This document shows positions 15,158 through 53,118 of a DNA stretch of 58,489 nucleotides, piece after piece. The DNA lies in the NCBI GenBank assembly GCA_003235715.1, contig QJVM01000148.1, positions 1-58,489 of the forward strand, read 5' to 3'. The position numbers and the translations under genes are program-made. Below the pieces are notes generated by a model. That model saw only the letters and a program-made list of their open reading frames with translations, did not search any database and had not been told where the DNA came from. The stretch comes from Nitrospirota bacterium (GTDB taxonomy: Bacteria; Nitrospirota; Thermodesulfovibrionia; SZUA-242). The first letter of the stretch is position 1. Every line of letters starts with the position of its first letter.

Positions 15158-16240
15158 GTGATGCGGCCCGAGCTCGAAAACCTTCAACGCGACTTTCAGG
15201 ATAACGTCGTCGAGGGCGTCATGTCTGAAGTCATGCTTGAAATTCTGGGCTCCGATGTCGTTACCGGGAAGGAATTCCTCAAGATTCTCACCCGGTTGAG
15301 TGAACTCGCCAAAGGTTTCATTGATACGGGGCGCTTCGAAGAAACGCTGCTCATCTATAACACCCTCTACACCCATTCCTTGGGAGGGCGGTTCAAAAGC
15401 GAGGCCCTGAACACGATCGAATACTTTTTTCATTCTCAAGATTTTACCGAACGTTTCATCCGTGCCCTCAGGGCCTGGGGCCTAAAGAACCGTGACGGGG
15501 CTGCCCGTCTGAGCCGGCCGCTCCGGAAGAGTCTCATGGGGCCTCTTCTTGCCGTGGCCCTCGATGAGGAGGATGAGAATGCCCGGAAGTTGTTTCTGTC
15601 GCTTCTCGTGGCCATGGGCCGAGACCTTATTCCTGTTGTCATGAAAGCGCTCCATTCCGACGATGCGGGGCGGGTTCGTATGCTTCTGTACCTCGTCAGG
15701 AAATGCGGGACGGATTCCGACCTTTCGGTCGTGCGAACCCTTCTGGGCCACAAGAACCAGCGGATCGGAACCGCGGCCGTGAGAACCCTGCTCCATTTCA
15801 AGACCAAGGATTCCCTTCCATATCTGAAAATTTACCTCGAATCCAGGGAACCGGAAGTCCGTCTTGAAGCGATTGAACTGGCCGGACTCTACCGACTGAA
15901 GGAAACTGTTCCCGCGGTCGAGGGCATCCTCGACCGAAAGGATCTCCTCGGTACGGCCCATGCTGAAAAGGTTGCGGCCGTTAGAGCGCTCGGACGGATG
16001 GGAGACATATCCATACTGGACCGATTCTCCAGAATTCTCGAAACCAGGAGTCTCATCAGCAAGGGAAAACTTGAAGATCTCAAGCTGGAAATCTTCCGTA
16101 GCCTGAGAAACTTTCCTCCGGAGGACGTGGAGCCCTTGCTGCGTCTCGGCGTGTGGTCGGATAACCAGGAAATGAAAGCCATCAGTGCGGAAATCATGGG
16201 CAAACTGTACGGCGCAGGGGAGACGCCTGTCGATGCCTGA
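15158..16240 (+). CDS. HEAT-repeat (PBS-lyase-type) domain protein
   Basis: Repeated helical units of the form VR..A...LG..G (RVRMLLYLVRKCG, GTAAVRTLLHF, EVRLEAIELAGLY, KVAAVRALGRMGD). No enzymatic motif seen. Confidence 0.7.
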   Translation: MMRPELENLQRDFQDNVVEGVMSEVMLEILGSDVVTGKEFLKILTRLSELAKGFIDTGRFEETLLIYNTLYTHSLGGRFKSEALNTIEYFFHSQDFTERFIRALRAWGLKNRDGAARLSRPLRKSLMGPLLAVALDEEDENARKLFLSLLVAMGRDLIPVVMKALHSDDAGRVRMLLYLVRKCGTDSDLSVVRTLLGHKNQRIGTAAVRTLLHFKTKDSLPYLKIYLESREPEVRLEAIELAGLYRLKETVPAVEGILDRKDLLGTAHAEKVAAVRALGRMGDISILDRFSRILETRSLISKGKLEDLKLEIFRSLRNFPPEDVEPLLRLGVWSDNQEMKAISAEIMGKLYGAGETPVDA

Positions 16241-17333
16241 GCGGATCGCCGCCATCATATCGGACCTCATGGGGGCGGCCTCCAATGCCGCCCTGCATTC
16301 AAAGGAACATCCGAGTGTGGAAGACTTCTGCAAGAAGGCGCTTCTGGGTCTGGAGCCGTTTTTTTCAAGCGGCGCAGCCAGCTTTGCCATTACGGGATAT
16401 ACCCTGCGTTTCAACGATTTTCTCACGTTGTCCCAGAAGAGCCTTGTGGTCGGAACTTTTGTCGACAAGCTGAGGCGGAAAGGCATCGGCAAGGTCACGA
16501 TCCGCAAGGGGGTTACGACGACGGAGCTGGCGGCATTCGTGGCCGACCTCCTCCCCTCGGAAAGGACTCCTCGGTCTTCACCCCGGATTTTCGTCGAGCA
16601 AACCTCTTCGACCAGAACGGCCGGGACGCCGGAGATCCTTGGTGAAATGCTCCCCGCGGCGGTCCGCATCGTGAAAGAAGCCCACCGAAAGGTGCTCAAG
16701 GCCGAACCTGTTGACCTCGATGACCTCGAAGGCCTGGTGGTCCGGTTCATTCACCTCCTCGGACAACCGCAAAGCATTCTGGATGTCGTGAAACCCCACC
16801 GTGCCAATCAGGATTACAGTTATGTTCATGCGGTCCGGGTATCGCTCCTTGCCATTGACCTTGCTCGCGCAATCGGTATGGAAGGAGACCCTCTTCACCA
16901 GGTGGGGTTAGCCGGACTGTTATTTGATGTGGGCCGTCTCTTCATCCCGCATGAGGTGCTCAACAAGACAGGTGACCTTGATGAAAGGGAACGGGCGACC
17001 ATCCAGCAGCATCCCCTGTATGGCGCCATGTACCTGGCTGCTCTGGAAGATATTCCCAAACTTGCGGTGATCGCGGCTTTTGAGCATCATATGAAATTCG
17101 ACGGCACAGGTTACCCGGATACGCGGTGGAGGGATCGGCATCAGCATATTGTGAGTCAGATTGTGTCCCTAACCGATTTCTTTGATGCGCTCCGGGCTCA
17201 GCAGCCGTATCGCAAGGCCTATGCCATTCCATTGATTGTGAAAAAGATGCAGGAGGGTGCCCGAAAGGAATTTAATCCCGTTTTGGTCCAGGAGTTTACC
17301 GGCAGGTTGGACCGCCTCGGTCTTCTTCGGTGA
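16233..17333 (+). CDS. HD-GYP domain phosphodiesterase (c-di-GMP-specific type)
   Basis: HAVRVS...LFDVGR (HD) and EHHMKFDGTGYPD (HHxxxDGxGYP). The start ATG overlaps the upstream stop (ATGCCTGA), which indicates translational coupling. Confidence 0.85.
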   Translation: MPERIAAIISDLMGAASNAALHSKEHPSVEDFCKKALLGLEPFFSSGAASFAITGYTLRFNDFLTLSQKSLVVGTFVDKLRRKGIGKVTIRKGVTTTELAAFVADLLPSERTPRSSPRIFVEQTSSTRTAGTPEILGEMLPAAVRIVKEAHRKVLKAEPVDLDDLEGLVVRFIHLLGQPQSILDVVKPHRANQDYSYVHAVRVSLLAIDLARAIGMEGDPLHQVGLAGLLFDVGRLFIPHEVLNKTGDLDERERATIQQHPLYGAMYLAALEDIPKLAVIAAFEHHMKFDGTGYPDTRWRDRHQHIVSQIVSLTDFFDALRAQQPYRKAYAIPLIVKKMQEGARKEFNPVLVQEFTGRLDRLGLLR

Positions 17334-18509: not shown

Positions 18510-19310
18510 TCATTTTTCATATTTCTCCCGCCGCCAGCGAAAGGGAAGATCTACGATGGTGCCCGGGACATCCACCGTATAAAGGGCATCGAAGGCTTTC
18601 TCGAGAACGGCTCGGTGCTGGGCGGGTCTGAAGGGTTCTCCGAGAGGATGACCGAAAGGCCAGCGCAGGAACACCGTTCGCGGAGGTTTGACCTTCTCCG
18701 AATATTTCCGCACGATGGAGATTCCAATGGTCGGGATGCCGGCCTTCTCAATCTCACGCTGAACCAGTCCCACGGACTGGTTGCATATGGCTCAACCCGG
18801 GGTCAGGAGGACCAGATCGACCCGGTCTTTCCTGAGATTCTGAACCACTTCCGGGGCCGACCGGTTGATCAGGGTCACGATATGGGGACCGTCGATGTGC
18901 CCCATGAAGCCGTAATGGGTTTCGGCCAGCCCCCCCAGGGTCCCTTCATCAACCATTTCCCTCAAACGGTCCAGAGGGAAAACAATATTCATGTCCCGGT
19001 CCGCGTCCGCATGGTCGTAGTAATCATGAGTAATCATGAGGTGGTCAAGGGAGACCCGGCCGTCGATACGGCGGAAGGAGGGGTCACCGTGGGGGTCATT
19101 CATGTTGAAAGGGGTCTGGTCTTTCTGGTGTACGCCAGCCGTGGTGACGAGGCTCAGGACGGATTGGTTCAGGGGCTTTGAGACCGGTGTCCAGGGAACC
19201 CCCTCCGTTTCCCAGGGCTGGTAGGCGTCGATGAATCTATTTGCCAGGGATGGGAACCTCGTAATAATCTTGGCAATGAGCATGTTCTTGAAGCGGGAAT
19301 GAGAAGCCAT
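18510..19310 (-). CDS. GrdB-family (glycine/sarcosine/betaine reductase component B-like) selenoprotein; Sec encoded by the in-frame TGA at 18792-18794
   Basis: ORFs 18792..19310 and 18510..18773 share strand and frame. Joined, they read ...RVDLVLLTPG-U-AICNQSVGLVQREIEKAGIPTIGISIV.... A SECIS-like hairpin lies 9 nt after the UGA. Confidence 0.75.
18762..18782 (-). promoter_or_regulatory. SECIS-like stem-loop for the GrdB-family gene
   Basis: The RNA AACCAGUC-CGUGG-GACUGGUU forms a perfect 8-bp stem with a 5-nt loop containing GUG. It starts 9 nt 3' of the UGA. Confidence 0.6.
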
Positions 19311-22018: not shown

Positions 22019-22153
22019 GGGGCTTAGCGTAGCCCCCGGGCAGTAAGCTGTCAATTGACCGGAGCGTCCTCTTTTGAGGGGGGACGGGGTTTGCGTGGAC
22101 CTTTGAGGGAGAATACTTGACAATAATTGTTGGTCTTTCTAAACTTGAGCCCT

Positions 22154-22603
22154 ATGCTCAAGCTTTCAACCAAGGGGCAGTACGGGGTTAGGGCCATGTT
22201 CGAAGTTGCCAGGAACTATGGCAAGGGCACCACGACCATCAAGGAGATTTCTGAAAGACAGGATGTTTCAGTCTCCTATCTCGAGCAGCTCCTCAATCGG
22301 CTCCGTCGAGCAGGCCTGGTGGACAGTGTGAAGGGCCCGGGCGGCGGCTATGTGCTGACGCGTGAGCCTGCGCAGGTCACCATCGGAGATATCCTCCGGG
22401 TGCTCGAGGGGCCGGTGGCCATCACCAGTTGTATGGATCCTTCTGCGGACGGGTGTGAACGGGTGGACTCCTGTGTGGCCCGGCTGCTCTGGAAATCGCT
22501 TGGGGAACGGATTGAGAAATTTCTTGATCAGATCACACTCCAGGAACTTCTGGAGGAAGAGAAGAACATCCTCTCTGGAACCCTTCGAATAGGACGCCTA
22601 TGA
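22154..22603 (+). CDS. iscR: Rrf2-family transcriptional regulator (IscR-like)
   Basis: MLKLSTKGQYGVRAMFEVA wHTH N-terminus and a three-Cys cluster (ITSCMDPSADGCERVDSC). Sits directly upstream of nifS-nifU. Confidence 0.85.
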   Translation: MLKLSTKGQYGVRAMFEVARNYGKGTTTIKEISERQDVSVSYLEQLLNRLRRAGLVDSVKGPGGGYVLTREPAQVTIGDILRVLEGPVAITSCMDPSADGCERVDSCVARLLWKSLGERIEKFLDQITLQELLEEEKNILSGTLRIGRL

Positions 22604-23766
22604 ATCCCGTATATGCCGACCACATAGCCACGACGCCATGCCGGCCCGAAGTCTTCGAGGCCATGAAGCCTTATTTCATGGAGCATTTCGGGAATCCGCT
22701 CAGCCTTCATGATTTCGGCCAGACGGCCCGCGATGCCATCGAGGCGGCGCGGGAGCAGGTGGCCGGGCTCATTGGTGCCAAAACAGAGGAGATTCTATAC
22801 ACCAGTTCGGGCACCGAGTCCTGCAACTTTGCGATCAAGGGAATGACGCACGCGTACCAGAAGAAAGGCCGACATATCGTGACCTCTTCGGTGGAACATC
22901 ACGCGGTGGCGAACCCGGTCAAGTTTCTGGAGAAAAACGGCTGTGAAGTGACGACCATTCCGGTAGATTCCGCAGGCCGGGTAGACCCGGACCAGGTGGC
23001 TCGGGCCCTGCGCGATGACACGGCGCTGGTCAGCATCATGCTCGCCAACAACGAGATCGGTACAATTCAGCCGGTGGCCGAGATCGGAAGGATAACCCGT
23101 GAGAGAGGAATTGTGTTCCATACCGATGCGTCCTGTGCAGTCGGAAACGTCCCGGTCGACGTAGAGGCCCTTCAGGTCGATGCCCTGAGCCTTTCGGGGC
23201 ACAAGTTCTTCGGGCCCAAGGGAGTCGGCGCCCTTTACCTGCGCAAGGGGACGCGCATAACGCCCCTCATTCACGGGGGCATCCAGGAAGGCGGGCGCCG
23301 TGCCGGCGCGGATAACGTGCCGGGTATCGTGGGGCTGGGCGCGGCCGCGGTACTGGCACGGGAGGAGATGAACGACCGGGTTGCCAGGGTGACGGACCTT
23401 CGGAACCGGCTGATCTCTGGAATTCTGGAACGGGTTGACGAGATTACCTACAACGGCCATCCCGAGTTGCGGCTTCCGGGAAACGTGAACATTGCGGTCA
23501 ACTATGTCGAGGGGGAGTCGCTCCTGCTTCTGCTTATGCATAAGGGGATTCTTGCTTCGAGCGGATCCACCTGTACCTCTCGTGCCCTCAAGGCCTCCGG
23601 CGTGCTTACGGCTATAGGGCTTTCGGAACAGGCCTGCCAGGGTTCTCTGCAGATGACCCTCGGACCGGGCAACACGGATGCGGAGGTGGACTATATTCTG
23701 GACGTACTTCCGGAGATCGTATCGAAGTTGCGGGCCATGTCGCCGCTGTACCATAGGAAGGACTAA
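22600..23766 (+). CDS. nifS: Cysteine desulfurase (NifS/IscS type)
   Basis: PLP-Lys motif SLSGHKFFGPKG and catalytic loop SSGSTCTS. 388 aa. Confidence 0.93.
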   Translation: MNPVYADHIATTPCRPEVFEAMKPYFMEHFGNPLSLHDFGQTARDAIEAAREQVAGLIGAKTEEILYTSSGTESCNFAIKGMTHAYQKKGRHIVTSSVEHHAVANPVKFLEKNGCEVTTIPVDSAGRVDPDQVARALRDDTALVSIMLANNEIGTIQPVAEIGRITRERGIVFHTDASCAVGNVPVDVEALQVDALSLSGHKFFGPKGVGALYLRKGTRITPLIHGGIQEGGRRAGADNVPGIVGLGAAAVLAREEMNDRVARVTDLRNRLISGILERVDEITYNGHPELRLPGNVNIAVNYVEGESLLLLLMHKGILASSGSTCTSRALKASGVLTAIGLSEQACQGSLQMTLGPGNTDAEVDYILDVLPEIVSKLRAMSPLYHRKD

Positions 23767-23804
23767 TCGAGCGGCACGGGCGCTCGGCAGGACAGGAGGA
23801 AATC

Positions 23805-24191
23805 ATGCTTTATTCGGAACAGGTCATGGAACATTTCATGAATCCGCGCAACGTCGGGGAACTCGAGAATCCGGACGGGGTGGGACAGGAGGGCAATCCC
23901 ACCTGTGGGGACGTCATGCAGATCCATATCCGGGTCGTTGACGGAACGATTGCAGATTGCCGCTTCAAGACCTTCGGGTGTGGGTCCGCCATCGCCATAT
24001 CCAGCCAGATCACGGAGATGGCCAAGGGCAAGACCCTTGAAGAGGCTCTGGCCATTACCAAGGAGGACGTGGCTTCGCAACTGGGGGGGCTTCCGCCCCA
24101 GAAGATGCATTGCTCCAACCTGGGCGCCGCGGCGCTTCGGAAAGCCATTGAGGATTATATGGCCCGCCGGCCCGCGGAACTGGTTCAGTAG
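23805..24191 (+). CDS. nifU: Fe-S cluster assembly scaffold (IscU/NifU N-terminal type)
   Basis: GNPTCGDVMQIH, FKTFGCGSAIA and KMHCSNLG, i.e. the three scaffold Cys residues. Confidence 0.93.
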   Translation: MLYSEQVMEHFMNPRNVGELENPDGVGQEGNPTCGDVMQIHIRVVDGTIADCRFKTFGCGSAIAISSQITEMAKGKTLEEALAITKEDVASQLGGLPPQKMHCSNLGAAALRKAIEDYMARRPAELVQ

Positions 24192-24205
24192 GATTTCCCG
24201 CCAAA

Positions 24206-24442
24206 ATGGATGACGCATCTTCCCGGAGTTTTCTGGACTGCATCGGACTTTTCTGTCCCAACCCGATCATCCAGACCTCAAAGCGCCTGAAGGAACTTCC
24301 CCCGGGAGGTCTTCTGGAAGTGGCGGCCGACGATGAAACCTTTCCCAAGGACATCCCGGAATGGTGCGCGAAAATGGGGTACGAGCTGCTTGAACTCACG
24401 AATGATGGAGGCGAGTTTCGGGCCCTGATACGGAAACCCTGA
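24206..24442 (+). CDS. tusA: TusA-family sulfurtransferase
   Basis: 78 aa with the CPxP motif (LDCIGLFCPNPII). Confidence 0.85.
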   Translation: MDDASSRSFLDCIGLFCPNPIIQTSKRLKELPPGGLLEVAADDETFPKDIPEWCAKMGYELLELTNDGGEFRALIRKP

Positions 24443-24465
24443 AGTCGGGAACAGAACCCGAACCC

Positions 24466-24954
24466 ATGAACAAGTCACGCACCACCAGGATGACCTCGTC
24501 CATGACGTTTCGAAAGCCGAGCCTTTCGGACGTGCGACTCATTCAGGCTCTGATCAACCGGAATGCAAGCAAGCAGATCATGCTGCCGCGTTCCCTGCAT
24601 GATGTCTATGAGATGCTCAGAGACTTCATCGTCTGTGAATCCTCCGGGCAGATTGTCGGGGTATGCGCCCTGCATATCACCTGGGAAGACCTTGGGGAAG
24701 TCCGGTCCCTTGCAGTGGAGGATGCGTTTCAGAAACAGGGTATCGGGAGCGCGCTGGTGAAGAAGTGTCTTGCGGAAGCCCGCCGCCTTGGCATCCGGCG
24801 GGTCTTCACGCTGACCTACGTCCCGGAGTTCTTCCACCGGCTCGGCTTTCTGGAAGTGGACAAGGCGACCCTGCCCCACAAGGTATGGGCCGATTGCATC
24901 AAGTGTCACCATTTTCCCGATTGCAACGAAGTGGCTCTTCTCAGGGAACTCTGA
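24466..24954 (+). CDS. GNAT-family N-acetyltransferase (ArgA C-terminal-like)
   Basis: VRSLAVEDAFQKQGIGSALV acetyl-CoA-binding motif (Q/RxxGxG/A). The exact start among several Mets is uncertain. Confidence 0.8.
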   Translation: MNKSRTTRMTSSMTFRKPSLSDVRLIQALINRNASKQIMLPRSLHDVYEMLRDFIVCESSGQIVGVCALHITWEDLGEVRSLAVEDAFQKQGIGSALVKKCLAEARRLGIRRVFTLTYVPEFFHRLGFLEVDKATLPHKVWADCIKCHHFPDCNEVALLREL

Positions 24955-25077
24955 GAAGACATATGAAGGAGACCGTGCGGTTGACAAAGCCTCTGCACGC
25001 CATTAGTATGGGCCCATCACAAGTTGACGCGGTCGAGGCCATCGACCCGGGAAAGGACTGAAAGGAAGGCAGCCCTG

Positions 25078-25464
25078 ATGAACCCCGAAGAGCTGAAGTA
25101 TCACAAGGAGCACACGTGGGCCCGGATCGAGGACGGCAAGGCCCGGGTTGGGATTACGGACTATGCTCAGGACTCTCTCGGCGAGGTGGTTTACGTGGAA
25201 CTCCCCGAAACCGGGGCCGAGGTACGGTCCGGCGAGGATCTCGGGGAGATCGAATCAACCAAGGCCACGTCGGCCATTATCAGTCCGGTTTCCGGAAAGG
25301 TCCTTGAGGTCAACGAGGAACTGAACGATTCCCCCGAGATCGTGAATGAAGATCCCTACGGCAAAGGTTGGGTCGCCATCATCGAGCTTGATGGAAACGG
25401 GGGAGTCGGGGATCTTATGGATGCAGGCCAATACGGCACCTTTGTCGTGGAAGAGGCCGGTTAG
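25078..25464 (+). CDS. gcvH: Glycine-cleavage H protein / lipoyl carrier protein (GcvH or LbpA-like)
   Basis: YHKEHTWARIEDGKARVGITDYAQDSLGEVVYVELPE...GEIESTKA, including the lipoyl-Lys motif ES-x-KA. Confidence 0.9.
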   Translation: MNPEELKYHKEHTWARIEDGKARVGITDYAQDSLGEVVYVELPETGAEVRSGEDLGEIESTKATSAIISPVSGKVLEVNEELNDSPEIVNEDPYGKGWVAIIELDGNGGVGDLMDAGQYGTFVVEEAG

Positions 25465-25684
25465 GGAAGGTTTTCGAAGCATCCGGAAGAGGTTCTTCCC
25501 GCCCCGGGAAAGTGCAGAGACCTCGGCTCACCGGCCATGCAGCAGGGACCGGGCAGACCGGGGTTTTTTGGTGTTCTTGCCTTGAGCGGACTTTCCACGA
25601 CCGTTCGTCTTGGTAGTCTGGCTCGAAGGGATATTTCCATCCCCGTCGTAGGGATTCCTGATTCAGCAAACGGAGGTTGGGCGC

Positions 25685-27070
25685 ATGAAGATCGTCGTTA
25701 TCGGTGCGGGCCCGGGCGGGTATGTCGCGGCGTTGCGCGCCGCGCAACGGGGCGCCGAGGTTACGGTGATAGAGGCAGAGGAGGTGGGCGGAACTTGTCT
25801 GAACTGGGGCTGCATCCCCACCAAGGCCCTGCTCGCTTCCGCGGAAACGTTCGCGCGGGTGAAACGGTGCGCGGATTACGGCCTTGAGGTATCCGGTGAG
25901 GTATTCGCACGCCTTGATCGCATCATGGCCCGAAAGGACAAGATCGTTTCCACCCAGGCCAAGGGAATCCGAAGCCTGTTCAAGAGCAGAGGGGTCACCC
26001 TCATGGAAGGCCGGGCCCGTCTTCAGTCACCCCGTTCGGTTGAGGTTTCCATGCAGGACGGAACACGGCGGCGAGTCGAAGGGGATGCCCTTCTTGTGGC
26101 CACGGGTTCCCGGCCCGCCTCGATCCCGGCCTTCCCATTTGATGGAAAGCGGGTCATCTCAAGCAATGAGGCGCTTCGTCTTTCGGAGGTGCCGAGAAGC
26201 CTCATGATTGTGGGGGCCGGCGTCATCGGTTGCGAGTTCGCCTTCATCTTCCGGGAACTGGGAAGTGAGGTGACCCTGATTGAAGCTATGCCGCGGGCCG
26301 TGTCCACCGAGGACCACGAGATATCCGAGATTCTTGAACGGGAGCTCAAGAAGAACAAGATCAAGCTCCTCAAGGATACGAAGATCCAGTCCATAGAGGT
26401 GACAGAGGAACAGGTAACGGCCCGCATTGAATCCGGTGCGTCGCTGGAGGCAAAGGTCGCGCTGGTATCGATTGGACGGGCGGCCAATACCCTGGACCTG
26501 GGCCTTGAGGATGTGGGTGTGAAATGCGGGGCCCGGGGGGAAATTGTGGTGGATGATCACCTGAGAACCAGCGTCGAGGGAGTCTACGCGGTGGGTGATG
26601 TGACCGGGGGGCTGATGCTGGCCCATGTGGCCTCCAAGCAGGGACTCATTGCCGTGGAGAACATCATGGGCGGAGATGTCCGCATGAACCATGAGGTCGT
26701 TCCTGCCGCGATATTCACCCACCCCGAAATCGGGTCCGTCGGGTTACGGGAACACCAGTGCGCGGAGCGCGGGCAGCGGATTAGGATCGGACGCTTTCCT
26801 TTCCGTGGTCTTGGGAAAGCCCATGCCATGGGCGAGATTGCCGGGATGGTCAAGGTCATTGCCGAGGATGGAACGGACCGGGTTCTGGGGGTTCACATCA
26901 TCGGTCCTCATGCCTCGGACCTCGTTCACGAGGCAGCCCTGGCCATGGAGAAAGGGCTCACGGTCCAGGATATCGCCGGAATGATTCATGCGCATCCCAC
27001 ACTTTCCGAAGGATTGATGGAAGCGTGTGAAGACGTGCACGGCATGGCAATTCATTTACCCCCAAAATAG
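25685..27070 (+). CDS. lpdA: Dihydrolipoyl dehydrogenase
   Basis: VVIGAGPGGYVAA (FAD), redox disulfide GGTCLNWGCIPTK, the NAD motif VGAGVIGCEFA, and HAHPTLSE at the C-terminus. Confidence 0.93.
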   Translation: MKIVVIGAGPGGYVAALRAAQRGAEVTVIEAEEVGGTCLNWGCIPTKALLASAETFARVKRCADYGLEVSGEVFARLDRIMARKDKIVSTQAKGIRSLFKSRGVTLMEGRARLQSPRSVEVSMQDGTRRRVEGDALLVATGSRPASIPAFPFDGKRVISSNEALRLSEVPRSLMIVGAGVIGCEFAFIFRELGSEVTLIEAMPRAVSTEDHEISEILERELKKNKIKLLKDTKIQSIEVTEEQVTARIESGASLEAKVALVSIGRAANTLDLGLEDVGVKCGARGEIVVDDHLRTSVEGVYAVGDVTGGLMLAHVASKQGLIAVENIMGGDVRMNHEVVPAAIFTHPEIGSVGLREHQCAERGQRIRIGRFPFRGLGKAHAMGEIAGMVKVIAEDGTDRVLGVHIIGPHASDLVHEAALAMEKGLTVQDIAGMIHAHPTLSEGLMEACEDVHGMAIHLPPK

Positions 27071-27207
27071 GGTCATAAAAAAAAGAAATAGGCTTCCGGG
27101 CAGAGCAAGTTCAGCCGCATCCCATACGGTTTTTTTCATTTTAAAAACGTTGGTTTACTCCATCGAAAAGCCTGCGAAACTGGCCGGAATTATGGGGTTT
27201 TCCTTTC

Positions 27208-27235
27208 TTGACAAAGCAAAAACACAGCCTATAAA
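27208..27235 (+). promoter_or_regulatory. Sigma-70-like promoter for the dsrH-E-F-tusA operon
   Basis: TTGACA (27208-27213), a 16-nt spacer, then TATAAA (27230-27235), in an AT-rich gap. Followed by the inverted repeat GTTCGCG-TAT-CGCGAAC (27246-27262). Confidence 0.45.
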
Positions 27236-27286
27236 CTTTGCCACTGTTCGCGTATCGCGAACCAACGAAAACATGGAGGTGGGAGG

Positions 27287-27586
27287 ATGAAGCTGGGTGT
27301 AATCCTTAGCGAGGCCGTGAGAACGGAAGAGACCTACGATCGGCTTCAAGCGGAGAAGCTGAGTGTCGTCCTTGCCGGGAACGGGATTTATCATGCTGTA
27401 AGCAAGAAGAACGGCAAGGCGTCGGAGGTTCTCAGCAAGAAGGCGGATTTCTACGTATTGACCGAAGACCTCGAGAGCCGGGGCTTCACAGCAGGCGACC
27501 TGGTGGATTCCAAGATCAAACCCATTGGATTTGACGGGCTGGTGGACCTCATTATGGACCAGCACGACAAGTTCATCTGGCTATAG
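27287..27586 (+). CDS. DsrH/TusB-family sulfur relay protein
   Basis: 99 aa. FYVLTEDLESRGF and the C-terminal ...DGLVDLIMDQHDKFIWL align by eye with E. coli TusB (VYALNEDLIARGL ... DFVRLTVKHPSQMAW). Confidence 0.75.
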   Translation: MKLGVILSEAVRTEETYDRLQAEKLSVVLAGNGIYHAVSKKNGKASEVLSKKADFYVLTEDLESRGFTAGDLVDSKIKPIGFDGLVDLIMDQHDKFIWL

Positions 27587-27596
27587 GAGGGGAACC

Positions 27597-27956
27597 ATGG
27601 GAAAACTGACCATCGGAGTTTTTTCGTCTCTCGTGGGCGGCACCACGCTTGATTTTTCGATCAGGCTGGCGAAGGCGGCCAAGGACAAGGGCCACGACGT
27701 ATACGTCTGGACATCGGGCAACGGAACCATGCTTTCCAAGACCGGCCAGCGGGCGTTCAAGGACTATTCGTATCTGGCCAAGATCTGCGAGGAACTTGCG
27801 GCCAAGGGAGTCGAATTTGTGGCTTGCGAGGCCTGTGCTGAAGCCCGCGGGTATCACAAGGAAGATACCTTCAGCGTGTTCAAGCGCCACAGCATGGACT
27901 GGTATCTGGCCAAGTGTTGCCAGAGCGACAAGATTCTTCACATAGGAGGCGAGTAA
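27597..27956 (+). CDS. DsrE/TusD-family sulfur relay protein
   Basis: 119 aa. FVACEACAEARGY aligns with the TusD Cys78 loop (ICVAAALRRGV). RBS TAGGAGGGG. Confidence 0.75.
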   Translation: MGKLTIGVFSSLVGGTTLDFSIRLAKAAKDKGHDVYVWTSGNGTMLSKTGQRAFKDYSYLAKICEELAAKGVEFVACEACAEARGYHKEDTFSVFKRHSMDWYLAKCCQSDKILHIGGE

Positions 27957-27957
27957 G

Positions 27958-28371
27958 ATGGCAAGAAAACTTAAGCAGCTTTACCTGGTCCAGCGGCCTC
28001 CCATCAAGAGCGAGAACCCGAAGCTGGCCTATACGCATGCCATGGCCAGCCAGACCGCCGAAATCTACCTTGAAGACGGGGAAGAGGTTATTCCGACCCT
28101 GGCCATGGTGGGTGACGGTGTCTACAACGTGGTGAACAACCAGCAGCTGATGAAGCATTATGGACTGAACAGCAACGAGAACCACGTCCAGATGGCCCTG
28201 CTCATCGACCTCAAGGTTCTGGTCTGTAAGGAAGACCTGGAGGCCCGGGGAATCAGCGCGGACCGTCTGGCCGACGGAAGCGCCCTGGGGGCGGACATGA
28301 CCATCGAGGTGGTGCCGTTCAGCGAAATTCAGAAAGAAATGGAAGCAACGGACCAGATCCTCTGCTTCTGA
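27958..28371 (+). CDS. DsrF/TusC-family sulfur relay protein
   Basis: 137 aa. VLVCKEDLEARGI aligns with TusC WVCAASLRERGL, and the C-terminus DQILCF resembles TusC ...DVILRF. Confidence 0.7.
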   Translation: MARKLKQLYLVQRPPIKSENPKLAYTHAMASQTAEIYLEDGEEVIPTLAMVGDGVYNVVNNQQLMKHYGLNSNENHVQMALLIDLKVLVCKEDLEARGISADRLADGSALGADMTIEVVPFSEIQKEMEATDQILCF

Positions 28372-28418
28372 GAATTTGTCTAGCCGTTAGCTAAATCCCA
28401 CAGTAAAGGAGATATGTA

Positions 28419-28670
28419 ATGTCAGATCTTAAATCCGAAACACCGGCTGAAACTCTGGATGTGCTGGGAAGGGTATGTCCCTATCCCCTTCTTCTGACGA
28501 AGAAACAGCTTGAGAAGATGGGCAGCGGAACGGTGCTGAAGGTGCTCACCGATGCGCCGGCCTCTGCCGAGGATTCCATCCCGCGGTATGCCGAGAAGCA
28601 GGGCTATGCCTTCCAGTCCGTCAAGGACGATGCGAACGGTCGCTGGGAACTCTACATCAAGAAGAGCTAA
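28419..28670 (+). CDS. tusA: TusA-family sulfurtransferase (second copy)
   Basis: 83 aa with the CPxP motif (LDVLGRVCPYPLL). GGAG RBS. Confidence 0.85.
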   Translation: MSDLKSETPAETLDVLGRVCPYPLLLTKKQLEKMGSGTVLKVLTDAPASAEDSIPRYAEKQGYAFQSVKDDANGRWELYIKKS

Positions 28671-28699
28671 GTCCATCTTAAGAGAATTTTTCCGAGAGA

Positions 28700-28729
28700 C
28701 CCCGGTGTCTAGGCGCCGGGGTTTTTTTT
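28700..28729 (+). terminator. Rho-independent terminator after the dsrHEF-tusA operon
   Basis: CCCCGGTG-TCTAGG-CGCCGGGG stem-loop followed by T8. Confidence 0.7.
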
Positions 28730-28794
28730 GGAACGCGTGCCAGGCGTGCTACTCTGGTATCAAATATTTTCAAGAGGGAGGTGGGACAAGGTTT

Positions 28795-29628
28795 ATGTCT
28801 CTCTTTGACTATCTCAAGCCGGTGGAAACCATGGCGTCACCGGACGTAAAGCGCCTGCTGGATGAGAAGGGGCCCGATGGGGTAAACCTTATAGACGTCC
28901 GCCAACCCCGGGAGTACGAATCCGGACATCTCGCCGGGGCGGAATTGATCCCCGTGGCTGAACTCCAGGACCGTCTGAGGGATCTGGATAAATCCAAACC
29001 CACCGTCGCGTACTGAAGGTCGGGGGTGCGCAGCCGGGCGGCTGCGGCGGTACTGAAGGGAGCCGGCTTCCGGGAGGTCTACAGCATGGAGGGCGGTATT
29101 GACGCCTGGCATGGAGGTGTGGCGCTCGGATCTCCCGACCGAAGCGTGGCGTACTTCCTCGAGGCCGCTTCGCTTGACCATATGCTGGCCCTCGCCTGGT
29201 CGATGGAGGAGGGCGCCTTGCGATTCTATTCAGCGGCAGCTGAAAAGAGCACCACCCCGGAGGCCGAGACCCTGTTTCAACAACTGGTTACGGCCGAGAT
29301 TCATCACAAGGCTTCCGTTGAGAAACTGAGGGAAAGGCTGGCCCCCGGGGAATCCTCTTTCGATGAACTGGTTGGAGAGCCGAACCTCGTCGGGAATATC
29401 ATGGAAGGAGGGTTCTCCACGGAGGAGATCATCAAGCGTTACGCGGCCCTTGATCCCGAGGATGTTCTGGCTTTTGCCATGGCCATGGAAACGACCTCCT
29501 TCGACCTTTACCTTCGTCTCGGCCGGACGGTGAAGGAGGACGAGGCCACCCGTGCCTTCCAGTCTCTTGCTCATGAAGAAAGAAAACATCTCGACCGGCT
29601 GGCCCAGGCCATGGATCAGGGGTTCTGA
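28795..29628 (+). CDS. Rhodanese (Sec at the catalytic position) fused to a ferritin-like diiron domain; Sec encoded by TGA 29014-29016
   Basis: ORFs ending at 29016 and starting at 29026 share a frame. Joined, they read ...DKSKPTVAY-U-RSGVRSRAAAAVLKGAGFREVYSMEGGIDAW, i.e. the rhodanese loop C-R-S-G-x-R-S with U in place of C. The C-terminal half carries E / ExxH / E / ExxH (MEEGA, AEIHH, AMETT, HEERKH). Confidence 0.75.
29029..29046 (+). promoter_or_regulatory. SECIS-like stem-loop for the rhodanese/ferritin-like gene
   Basis: CGCAGCC-GGGC-GGCUGCG forms a 7-bp stem starting 12 nt after the UGA. Confidence 0.5.
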
Positions 29629-36027: not shown

Positions 36028-37383
36028 CTATTCTGCCGCGATGTTGTAGTGTCCGTCCTTGTCGATCTCGATGTTGGCGTTCAGGAACCGGGCGTTATAG
36101 CCCTTTTCCTTCAGCGTCAGATAGGCCATCTCGGCGCGGATTCCCGTAATGCAGTGAAGGATGACTTCCTTGTCCTTGGGAATCTGGTCCACGTTGTCGG
36201 CCACATCCTGGGCAGGGATGTTATGGGCCCCCTTCAGCATGCCCTGCATGGCCTCATCCTCATCCCGCACATCGAGGATGAACTTGTCTCCAGGCATGGT
36301 TTCAACGATTTGCTTGAACTCGGCTACCGGGATGGAACCCGCGGCCGGTTTTGGAACGTAGACGATTTCCGTGGCCAGCTGGTTGCTCGCCAATTCGGCG
36401 CCGCTGTTCTTCCATGCGGGGAATCCGCCCTCAAGAACAGAGATGTTCTTGAAGCCCCAACCGCGAACAACCGCGAAAGAGGGCATCGCCTCGCTCTGGG
36501 TCTCCGCGTAGAGCACAACGGGCGCAGCCTTCGAGCCCGGGAAGGCGTTCTTCATGTTTGGCAGATCAGCGGCCGGAATCGATACGGCTCCGGGGATGTG
36601 CGCGGCTTTGGCCGAATCGACAGGCCGGAGGTCAATGACGACCACTGGCATGCCTTCCTTGTACTGATCCTGGAGGTATTTGGCGGTTGAGACGACAGGC
36701 ATCTTGGCCTTTTTCCAGGCCGGCATGCCGTCATGAAAGATCCTGACGTTGGTATATCCGAGTTTCTCCGCCCGACCGGCGGAAGAAGGGCTCAGCCTTC
36801 AAGTAGGGCCGCCGCAGTAGAAGATCAGGAGGCGGCTCTTGTCCTTCGGGAGTTTGTCGACATTTTCATCGAACTGGGCATCGTAGATGACGATGGAGCC
36901 GGGGATGTGCCCTTCGTGATACCTCGGCCCCGGACGCGCATCCACCAGCGTGTAATTTCCGGCTTCGGGGCCCTTGTCAACAAGGGCTGAAAGTTCTTCC
37001 AGCTTAATCAGTTTTTCCTCGGGGACGACCGCTGGCGGTTTGACATAGACCTTGGTGGCGTAGAGCTGGCCGTCCTCCTGCACATAATGGATGGCGATCT
37101 CCTTGCCCTGGCCGATGTTTTTGAAGTCCTTCTCTCCGATGAGCTCCGTATCGGCGTCGAAGGGGACCACCCAGGTGGCCGGGCCGATCTGAATCTTGAT
37201 GGTTTCAGCCTTGGCCGACACGGTTCCCAGCTGTCCCCGGAGTACCCCGGGTTCATCCTTGTGGCATTGCAGACAGGGTTTGATGATGGTGGGCTTTCCA
37301 TCCGCCGCCCAGGCGCCTGTCATGTACAGGACCGTTGCGGCCAGGAGAGCGACCGTCATCGTGATAAAGGCTCGTTTCCGCAT
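36028..37383 (-). CDS. Secreted monoheme c-type cytochrome fused to three rhodanese domains; selenoprotein with Sec encoded by TGA 36799-36801
   Basis: ORFs 36799..37464 and 36028..36726 are in frame. Joined, they read ...SRLLIFYCGGPT-U-RLSPSSAGRAEKLGYTNVRIFHDGMPAWKKA..., and the 72-nt gap encodes the missing C-terminal part of rhodanese domain 1. Signal peptide MRKRAFITMTVALLAATVLYMTGAWA and heme motif CLQCH are present. Domain 2 lacks a Cys; domain 3 has HCITGIRAE. AGGAGG RBS before the ATG at 37383. Confidence 0.7.
36763..36787 (-). promoter_or_regulatory. SECIS-like stem-loop for the heme-rhodanese gene
   Basis: UUCUUCCGCC-GGUCG-GGCGGAGAAA: 5 G:C pairs, then U:A and U:G, one mismatch, then 2 U:A. 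The GGUC-containing loop resembles the E. coli fdhF SECIS apex. Starts 11 nt after the UGA. Confidence 0.55.
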
Positions 37384-37452
37384 AATGCCTCCTTTCAGAA
37401 TTCGGACCGCCAGATGCGGTCCGGTCATGGATTCTGTAAACCGTATGACAAA

Positions 37453-37468
37453 AGCAATTGACATACCC
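37453..37468 (-). promoter_or_regulatory. Sigma-54 (-24/-12) type promoter for the heme-rhodanese selenoprotein gene
   Basis: The minus strand reads GGGTATG-TCAA-TTGCT, against the consensus TGGCACG-N4-TTGCW. GG and GC have the correct spacing. It lies about 70 nt upstream of the ATG at 37383. Confidence 0.4.
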
Positions 37469-52779: not shown

Positions 52780-53118
52780 TCAGCCGATGAAGAATTTCTC
52801 AGGGGGCCGGCGCTCCGGAACATAGGGGTGTTCCTGCGTGCCCTCGTTCCATTGTTTTGACACGTAGAGGCCGCAGTAGCAGCTTCCGAATTCCTTCACG
52901 TCCGGCTCCCGATAAAGACAGGGGCAGATGATGTCCTTGTCCCGTTCCCGGTCTCCGCTGGCGAGACGGCAGGGACAGGCCATGTATCCGTACCGATTCT
53001 TGTTGGTCAGAAGCCCCTCCAGCAGTTCCAGCGTTTCGGTCTCGTCGGCGTTGAACAAGTAGCCGAGGGGTTCCTGAATCTTGCGAAGGGTTTCGTAAAG
53101 TTTCCGAACGTCGCTCAT
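52780..53118 (-). CDS. Ferredoxin:thioredoxin reductase catalytic-subunit-like protein
   Basis: CPCR...CPC...CYC cysteine pattern (MACPCRLASG...IICPCLYR...GSCYCGLYV). Confidence 0.8.
   Translation of the reverse strand: MSDVRKLYETLRKIQEPLGYLFNADETETLELLEGLLTNKNRYGYMACPCRLASGDRERDKDIICPCLYREPDVKEFGSCYCGLYVSKQWNEGTQEHPYVPERRPPEKFFIG

Follow-up and report, generated by a model that had tools for sequence, protein, structure and literature searches.

A run of twelve genes associated with sulfur, selenium and lipoyl chemistry occupies positions 22154 to 29628 of contig QJVM01000148.1 (GenBank assembly GCA_003235715.1), from a Nitrospirota bacterium of the Thermodesulfovibrionia. The contig, which we refer to as the window, is 58,489 nucleotides long and was analysed as a whole. 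We think it likely that four autonomous transcription units have come to lie side by side here, in one lineage, in the genome of an uncultured, Thermodesulfovibrionia-like member of the Nitrospirota, namely iscR-nifS-nifU-tusA-GNAT (unit A), gcvH-lpd (unit B), dsrH-dsrE-dsrF-tusA (unit C) and a selenocysteine rhodanese/ferritin-like gene (unit D). A sequence-only reading of the same DNA had proposed an integrated lipoyl-dependent machine for sulfur and selenium traffic. Its gene identities held, and the integrated machine did not, given separate promoters, a terminator and modules that are split in relatives. Each module is a known kind of unit, and the evidence does not support a supercluster that functions as a whole.

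The run is divided by four intergenic gaps, of 123 nt between the GNAT gene and gcvH, 220 nt between gcvH and lpd, 216 nt between lpd and dsrH, and 124 nt between the second tusA gene (tusA2) and the rhodanese gene. A consensus scan predicted sigma-70-type promoters on the forward strand ahead of the iscR block (22117..22145; TTGACA-17-TAAACT), gcvH-lpd (24981..25009; TTGACA-17-TAGTAT) and dsrHEF-tusA (27208..27237; TTGACA-18-TAAACT), all three with a perfect TTGACA -35 hexamer. The iscR element also stands 5' of iscR in loci L095 and L096. Upstream of gcvH, an element of the form CTTGACAAA...TTA(G/A)TAT is kept in L095, L012, L008, L092, L014 and L015, and a related CTTGACAAA element occurs in L093. 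A CTTGACAA-N17/18-TAxxxT element lies 50-60 nt 5' of dsrH in each of the seven lpd-linked loci that were compared, as well as in most of the other Nitrospirota loci, regardless of the upstream gene. The promoter that the sequence-only reading had marked at 27208 was thus recovered by the scan and is kept in relatives. Downstream of tusA2, RNA folding predicted an intrinsic terminator on the forward strand (28698-28729), with a GC stem followed by T8, a fold energy of -28.2 kcal/mol and z=-3.16 against shuffles. Since these gaps, three consensus promoters and one strong terminator split the run, the twelve genes could not be confirmed as one unit.

A further signal lies within unit B. The minimum-free-energy fold of the gcvH-lpd gap contains a hairpin with a T-run (25517-25569, forward strand) that is terminator- or attenuator-like, so the weak hairpin that had been remarked on after gcvH is real. 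An analogous GC hairpin with a T-run is found in the same gap of L012, L008 and L092, and is absent from L014, L015, L093 and L094, where gcvH and lpd abut or overlap. This hairpin may be an attenuator that raises the ratio of H to L protein. An Rfam scan of the intergenic gaps found no riboswitch (for example for glycine) or other element; the only match, to Spot 42 over the tusA2 terminator, was judged spurious.

In order to see how the modules behave in relatives, a genome collection was scanned with a DsrE alignment, yielding 80 species loci, and a metagenome scan with NifU yielded another 80 loci. Neighbours were tabulated by tblastn in both sets, which for DsrE homologues came to 91 loci in all. 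The genes dsrH, dsrE and dsrF form one unit in 91 of the 91, with tusA downstream in about two thirds, and NifS, NifU, IscR, the GNAT protein and the rhodanese fusion were found within 10 kb of none of them. In most species dsrHEF is located inside a dsrC-ferredoxin-dsrHEF-dsrMKJOP cluster or beside an oppositely oriented dsrC-dsrMKJOP. The iscR block is followed by gcvH, as in the window, in L095 (NifU 91% identical), whose contig covers iscR to gcvH. It is also present as iscR-nifS-nifU-tusA-GNAT in L096 (NifU 74% identical), with no gcvH in the 8 kb downstream. L092, a locus from the GcvH-homologue comparison, carries the six-gene block gcvH-lpd-dsrHEF-tusA, and comes from the same metagenome as L096, on a different contig; given the shared metagenome and the similar identity to the window, the two blocks are probably apart in one genome. 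In the more distant Nitrospirota loci L093 and L094, gcvH and lpd are a stand-alone pair with a 4-nt overlap, with no gcvT/P or dsr genes within 8 kb. At the 3' end, L175 (DsrHEF 93-96% identical) has lpd-dsrHEF-tusA-rhodanese(TGA)-ferritin-like-abhydrolase-CBS as in the window, and solely there, among relatives, does the rhodanese fusion follow tusA. The full twelve-gene order is therefore seen solely through two very close relatives, L095 and L175, each on a partial contig. Conservation of the twelve-gene order is rejected beyond near-identical relatives, across both sets of 80 loci, where the order breaks into the four modules. What does recur in relatives is the (gcvH-)lpd/dsrHEF-tusA neighbourhood.

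As a separate observation on this part of the genome, a HEAT-repeat gene and an HD-domain gene stand directly 5' of lpd in L006 (242-3311), and the same pair is found at 15158-17333 (forward strand) of the window, about 8 kb upstream of lpd. The difference in spacing implies that a block which includes the iscR operon and gcvH was either gained by the window's lineage or lost from the other one.

All twelve genes were recovered on the forward strand in the order that had been described, by open reading frame (ORF) listing and Pfam and NCBIfam scans. Unit A opens with an IscR-like regulator of the Rrf2 family (22154-22603; Pfam Rrf2 E=1.8e-41) and a NifS-type cysteine desulfurase of the class-V aminotransferases (22600-23766; Aminotran_5 E=6e-80), whose start overlaps the iscR stop by 4 nt. 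These are followed by a NifU/IscU-type iron-sulfur (Fe-S) scaffold consisting of the N-terminal domain alone (23805-24191; NifU_N E=1.3e-47), the sulfur carrier TusA1 with a CPNP motif (24206-24442; Pfam TusA E=3.2e-24) and, closing the block, a GNAT N-acetyltransferase of the PRK07757 type (24466-24954; NF005840 215 against a cut-off of 154). In NCBIfam, the regulator passes the Rrf2 superfamily cut-off and scores 148 bits for the IscR equivalog, under the cut-off of 208; the desulfurase reaches 526.1 bits for NifS (TIGR03402; cut-off 530.75) and the scaffold 184.6 for TIGR03419 (cut-off 187.9). Unit A thus resembles the IscR-NifS/IscS-NifU/IscU operons of anaerobes in its tight grouping of genes for an Rrf2 regulator, a desulfurase of class V and a NifU_N scaffold, and it comes to within 5 bits of the equivalog cut-offs for NifS and for NifU of the clostridial type. 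It differs from them in the TusA and GNAT genes at its 3' end and in missing the IscR equivalog cut-off. It is a minimal NIF/ISC-type Fe-S assembly operon of anaerobes, in which, by analogy with characterised homologues, NifS would make persulfide from cysteine, clusters would be assembled on NifU, TusA1 would divert sulfur to thio-cofactors and the Rrf2 protein would autoregulate the operon. In dozens of lineages (L098-L174), a TusA-like gene whose product is ~30-36% identical to TusA1 lies between iscR and nifS, so a TusA inside a NIF/ISC-type Fe-S operon seems to be widespread; no discussion of such an arrangement was found in a limited literature search.

Unit B consists of GcvH, the lipoyl carrier or H protein of glycine cleavage (25078-25464; GCV_H E=7.7e-41), and dihydrolipoyl dehydrogenase, the Lpd, E3 or L protein (25685-27070; TIGR01350 543 against a cut-off of 409). 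GcvH passes both gcvH equivalog cut-offs of NCBIfam (TIGR00527, 152.1 against 115.85; NF002270, 157.2 against 117). Its sequence identity is 48% with E. coli GcvH (3a7a_B) and 49% with that of T. maritima, the range being 48-49% with T. thermophilus included, and its nearest named homologues are from Nitrospirota. It contains no cysteine, and the same is true of 118 of its 120 nearest homologues. Residue K62, within E-S-T-K-A, falls in alignment on the lipoyl-lysine motif (E-S-V-K-A) of the E. coli and T. maritima proteins, a feature common to GcvH and the lipoate-binding protein LbpA of sHdr systems and therefore not discriminating. LbpA has two strictly conserved cysteines near its N- and C-terminus that are absent from GcvH, is 26-35% identical to E. 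coli GcvH, and is linked to hdr-like genes (hdrC1B1A-hyp-hdrC2B2), a dedicated LplA-like ligase and radical-SAM lipoate maturation genes (Cao 2018, PMC6067878). An LbpA identity for the window protein was rejected on its lack of cysteine, its 48% identity to the E. coli protein, its equivalog score and the lack of sHdr or LplA neighbours; sHdr genes, an LbpA-specific ligase and radical-SAM lipoate genes were found neither in the window nor in the gene tables of L006, L008 and L092. The suggestion of an LbpA/sHdr-like lipoyl protein was not borne out, and by its sequence the window GcvH is canonical and orthologous to the gcvH of stand-alone Nitrospirota gcvH-lpd pairs. Family score and motifs mark Lpd, too, as canonical: it has the GGTCLNWGCIPTK redox disulfide (CxxxxC) and the His-Glu dyad in HAHPTLSE, and its best solved-structure matches are all Lpd enzymes (E=1e-109).

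The sequence-only reading was right that gcvH and lpd occur in the 58-kb window without gcvT or gcvP, and without Hdr or DsrC genes. Pfam scans, which took in the majority of the remaining larger ORFs, gave no sign in the window of gcvT, gcvP, Hdr, DsrC, LplA or a gene for selenium utilisation, the ORFs outside these scans being judged from their translations alone, and tblastn of the window with DsrC/K/M/P gave no match. Other thiol-redox systems are encoded in the window, namely thioredoxin and AhpC/TSA-like genes at 320-1351 and, on the reverse strand at 52780-53118, a small protein matching FeThRed_B, the catalytic subunit of ferredoxin:thioredoxin reductase. Unit B matches the glycine cleavage/synthase system, with its H and L proteins, in its equivalog scores, in its intact lipoyl-lysine and Lpd redox motifs and in its stand-alone counterpart in Nitrospirota; it is unlike that system in having no gcvT/gcvP in the window or within 8 kb in the relatives examined. 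It would supply the lipoyl carrier H and the NAD-linked dihydrolipoyl dehydrogenase L for glycine cleavage or synthesis. In an anaerobe without 2-oxoacid dehydrogenases, H would be the sole partner of the L protein, which would account for a two-gene gcvH-lpd operon.

In unit C, a DsrH-like subunit (27287-27586; Pfam DsrH E=3.4e-10), a DsrE-like subunit (27597-27956; Pfam DsrE E=8.4e-10) and a DsrF-like subunit (27958-28371; Pfam DsrE E=2.5e-7, with a weak TusC/DsrF match at E=5.3e-5) are followed by TusA2, a sulfur carrier with a CPYP motif that closes the operon (28419-28670; Pfam TusA E=8.2e-22). The three subunits are adjacent DsrE-fold paralogues, as in DsrEFH, and would form a putative heterotrimer. 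An AlphaFold2 model of the DsrE-like protein, with a predicted local distance difference test score (pLDDT) of 86.7, had TM-scores of 0.82 to A. vinosum DsrE (2hy5_A), 0.73 to 2hy5_B and 0.66 to 2hy5_C, and also matched E. coli YchN, the sequence identity to its structural matches being 17-20%. Its homologues, where named, belong to Nitrospirota (Thermodesulfovibrionia, Dissulfurispiraceae and magnetotactic genera), apart from two loci with another phylum label or none. In its C77-E-A-C80 motif (A-C-E-A-C-A-E-A-R-G) both cysteines are invariant in 91 of 91 loci, as is C90 of the DsrF-like protein. On the C-x7-G spacing that we take A. vinosum and E. coli DsrE homologues to share, we infer that C77 is equivalent to A. 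vinosum Cys78. The conserved active-site cysteine of DsrE is Cys78 in type I and Cys67 in type II (Plum-Jensen et al. 2026, PMC13293266). Type I DsrEFH is that of Allochromatium vinosum. Type II, known from cable bacteria and from sulfate reducers, shares less than 30% identity with it and has a subtype 1 that occurs mostly in Nitrospirota and is nearest to type I (PMC13293266). Sulfur transfer from TusA through the DsrE cysteine to DsrC has been demonstrated in vitro for both types, with A. vinosum and cable-bacterial proteins (PMC13293266).

Judged by its genes, the DsrHEF-TusA of the window fits this recently recognised Nitrospirota DsrEFH group (PMC13293266), and the context of dsrHEF-tusA in most Nitrospirota fits the known TusA to DsrEFH to DsrC relay. 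Points of likeness to that relay are the three paralogous DsrE-fold subunits beside tusA, the invariant cysteine at the Cys78 position and the prevalence, among Nitrospirota relatives, of dsrHEF in or beside dsrC-dsrMKJOP. Points of difference are the gene order H-E-F-tusA, the ~19% identity to A. vinosum DsrE and the position of the window clade's dsrHEF beside lpd and not beside dsr genes. The yeeE/yedE gene of YTD clusters is not found beside dsrHEF-tusA in the window. Unit C would then encode a DsrEFH sulfur transferase in its Nitrospirota form, along with the TusA that serves as donor, and persulfide would pass from TusA2 to Cys77 of DsrE and on to a DsrC encoded elsewhere, which would feed or be fed by DsrAB/DsrMKJOP.

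Two further features of dsrHEF loci concern the window's clade. Just 3' of the dsrH -10 element, at 27238-27260, lies a short motif TTGCCAC-N-TT or CCGCACCATTT that is conserved at the same position in L014, L015, L012 and L006 of the clade and in its sister L013, whereas other Nitrospirota lack it; an operator or an element of the 5' untranslated region is possible. Elsewhere, a gene for a 61-residue 2x[4Fe-4S] ferredoxin is almost always located beside dsrHEF(-tusA) (L001, L004, L010, L047 and many more), where it lies between dsrC and dsrH or else downstream, on the other strand, and it is missing from the window's clade.

Unit D is a fusion ORF of rhodanese and rubrerythrin/ferritin-like domains (28795-29628, forward strand; Pfam Rhodanese and Rubrerythrin). 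An in-frame TGA at 29014-29016 falls exactly at the catalytic cysteine of the C-R-S-G-x-R loop (Y-TGA-R-S-G-V-R-S) and is followed by a hairpin, GCAGCC-GGGC-GGCUGC, at 29030-29045. The fold energy of this hairpin is not significant (z=0.47), and the retention of both TGA and hairpin in L175 is more informative. Full-length homologues of the fusion have 274-283 residues and 40-45% identity. Its closest homologues are annotated as C-terminal fragments of 192-200 residues, which implies that their gene models also halt at the TGA. The proposal of a selenoprotein rhodanese is upheld by these features, and the fusion very probably is one, a selenocysteine rhodanese joined to a ferritin-like domain that would be made from its own transcript. 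One full-length homologue (45% identity) is encoded beside ruvCAB, without sulfur genes.

Other ORFs of the window also contain a single in-frame TGA. On the reverse strand at 18510-19310, a GrdB-family ORF (Pfam GRDB) reads ...LLTPG-TGA-AICNQS..., with a hairpin (AACCAGTCC/GGACTGGTT) directly 3' of the TGA. Its product, a relative of glycine/sarcosine/betaine reductase B, would probably be a second selenoprotein. A third candidate lies on the same strand at 36028-37464, where a signal-peptide/CxxCH cytochrome-like N-terminus precedes three rhodanese domains and the TGA (...FYCGGPT-TGA-RLSPS...) is followed by a UUCCGCC-GGUC-GGCGGAG hairpin. This ORF shows that the organism has rhodaneses unlinked to the twelve-gene cluster.

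The evidence that sits least easily with four independent units concerns units B and C. In a neighbour-joining tree of concatenated DsrH, DsrE and DsrF, every locus with lpd upstream falls in one clade, made up of four lineages (the window, L006/7, L014/15 and L008/9/12/92), with L013, which has ilvC upstream of dsrHEF, as its sister. In all ten loci of this monophyletic clade (gcvH-)lpd is directly 5' of dsrHEF-tusA, even though the loci range over 42-58% guanine-plus-cytosine content, share ~70-80% protein identity and differ in their outer flanks. The adjacency has thus persisted for longer than expected of unrelated neighbours. In L006, lpd has stayed with dsrHEF though gcvH is not adjacent, and throughout the clade dsrHEF has left the neighbourhood of dsrC/dsrMKJOP. 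The dsrHEF-linked Lpd proteins compared (window, L006, L008, L012, L014, L015 and L092) have two invariant extra cysteines, C359 and, a few residues past the His-Glu dyad, C448, which neither the two stand-alone Nitrospirota Lpds nor solved Lpd structures contain. Finally, the promoters and the terminator that divide the run are themselves predicted from sequence, with the backing of comparison with relatives. Together these observations count against full autonomy, and the recurring neighbourhood may be inherited synteny or a real link between Lpd, the lipoyl arm and persulfide. The latter would mean that one Nitrospirota clade recruited Lpd and lipoyl-GcvH to link the persulfide relay of TusA and DsrEFH to NAD(H), as its redox partner. 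A persulfide carried by TusA2 or DsrE would be attacked by dihydrolipoyl-GcvH to give H2S and oxidised lipoyl-GcvH, and NADH would re-reduce the lipoyl group via Lpd; run in reverse, the system would produce NADH from the oxidation of sulfane sulfur. In this scheme the dithiol arm of the lipoyl group would replace that of DsrC together with DsrMK, and C359 and C448 of Lpd might participate. Dihydrolipoate is a classical acceptor of rhodanese-bound sulfane sulfur. Lpd-lipoyl protein reductant systems also exist outside 2-oxoacid complexes. In M. tuberculosis, the Lpd-DlaT-AhpD-AhpC system passes electrons from NADH through Lpd to a lipoyl protein that serves as a general dithiol reductant for a thiol-based partner, which is what this coupling requires; unlike there, no AhpD-like adaptor is present here, and contact of lipoyl-GcvH with TusA or DsrE is hypothetical. 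In Metallosphaera, a dihydrolipoamide dehydrogenase gene flanks dsrE3A-dsrE2B-tusA (PMC4175335), and the LbpA of sHdr systems cooperates with DsrE/TusA (PMC11094781). In Pelobacter, Pcar_0429 combines a flavoprotein disulfide reductase with domains of the rhodanese, TusA and DsrE families in one protein (PMC3543383). These related precedents make a lipoyl/Lpd-linked function in persulfide redox chemically plausible. The sHdr-LbpA system has a GcvH-fold lipoyl protein near DsrE-family, TusA and rhodanese genes as in the window (Cao et al. 2018, PMC6067878; Tanabe et al. 2024, PMC11094781), and its archaeal versions have a dihydrolipoamide dehydrogenase gene adjacent. It differs in that the window lacks sHdr genes, an LplA ligase specific for LbpA and radical-SAM lipoate genes, that its GcvH is canonical in score and identity and has neither of the two LbpA cysteines, and that its DsrE proteins are of the DsrEFH heterotrimer type, as judged by the three paralogous subunits and not by comparison with DsrE3/DsrE2.

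We regard such a coupling as unlikely. The lpd-dsrHEF adjacency has a single evolutionary origin and counts as one event; it is lacking in the sister lineage L013 and in ~80 other species, and dsrH and gcvH each retain their own conserved predicted promoter. GcvH shows no specialisation, being canonical, free of cysteine and orthologous to stand-alone gcvH. The 35 clade-specific columns of Lpd are expected from shared ancestry alone, and each extra cysteine also occurs sporadically in unrelated Lpd proteins (5-7% of 150 library representatives, with both together in one), so that C359 and C448 are not decisive for specialisation on a comparison with two outgroup sequences and library representatives that carry no genomic context. 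Literature searches for a described gcvH-lpd-dsrEFH link found none. The wider proposal of the sequence-only reading, a single persulfide/perselenide relay from NifS through TusA and DsrEFH to the selenocysteine rhodanese with the lipoyl arm as reductant or carrier, appears highly improbable. All of its components are chemically able to carry sulfane sulfur or selenium, L095 and L175 keep the window order over the extent of their contigs, and the window encodes at least two further candidate selenoproteins, which would need selenium traffic. Against this, the gene order is lost outside the near-identical relatives, promoter or terminator signals fall into four separate sets, the iscR block is an Fe-S assembly operon of the standard kind that stands alone in many lineages, the rhodanese fusion is found elsewhere without sulfur genes, as beside ruvCAB, and no selD, selA, selB or YedE was found in the window. 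That reading had itself named a canonical GcvH, an unconserved gene order and the presence of gcvT and gcvP elsewhere as evidence against it; because GcvH is canonical and the order is not conserved, it largely fails on its own terms. There is also little to recommend the idea that dsrHEF-tusA is a TusBCD-TusA acting with NifS in tRNA 2-thiouridine synthesis (IscS to TusA to TusBCD to TusE to MnmA) and not in dissimilatory sulfur metabolism, and TusBCD identity was rejected on family cut-offs and genomic context. The JGI label of many homologues is 'tRNA 2-thiouridine synthesizing protein D', the DsrE-like model has a TM-score of 0.80 to TusD (2d1p_A), and the window has genes for a cysteine desulfurase and a TusA close by. 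However, all three subunits are under the TusB/C/D equivalog cut-offs of NCBIfam: the DsrH-like protein scores 43 for TusB/DsrH (TIGR03011; cut-off 49), the TusC match is 23 against 94, and the DsrE-like protein matches no NCBIfam family. Among the matches found the family is restricted to Nitrospirota, and no mnmA or tusE lies beside dsrHEF-tusA. The scores below these cut-offs, and the embedding in dsrC-dsrMKJOP clusters in most species, therefore argue against a role in tRNA thiolation.

For the biology of these Nitrospirota, the arrangement of four autonomous units means that a striking twelve-gene sulfur run would be four ordinary operons, a finding that guards against over-reading gene neighbourhoods. 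For organisms with Dsr of the reductive type, the Nitrospirota DsrEFH group into which unit C fits has been put forward as a marker of the capacity to oxidise sulfur. If the coupling of Lpd and lipoyl-GcvH to DsrHEF-TusA were true, it would amount to an sHdr- and Dsr-independent route to reduce or oxidise protein-bound sulfane sulfur, and the lpd/dsrHEF neighbourhood, if functional, would extend lipoate-dependent sulfur chemistry beyond the sHdr-LbpA system.

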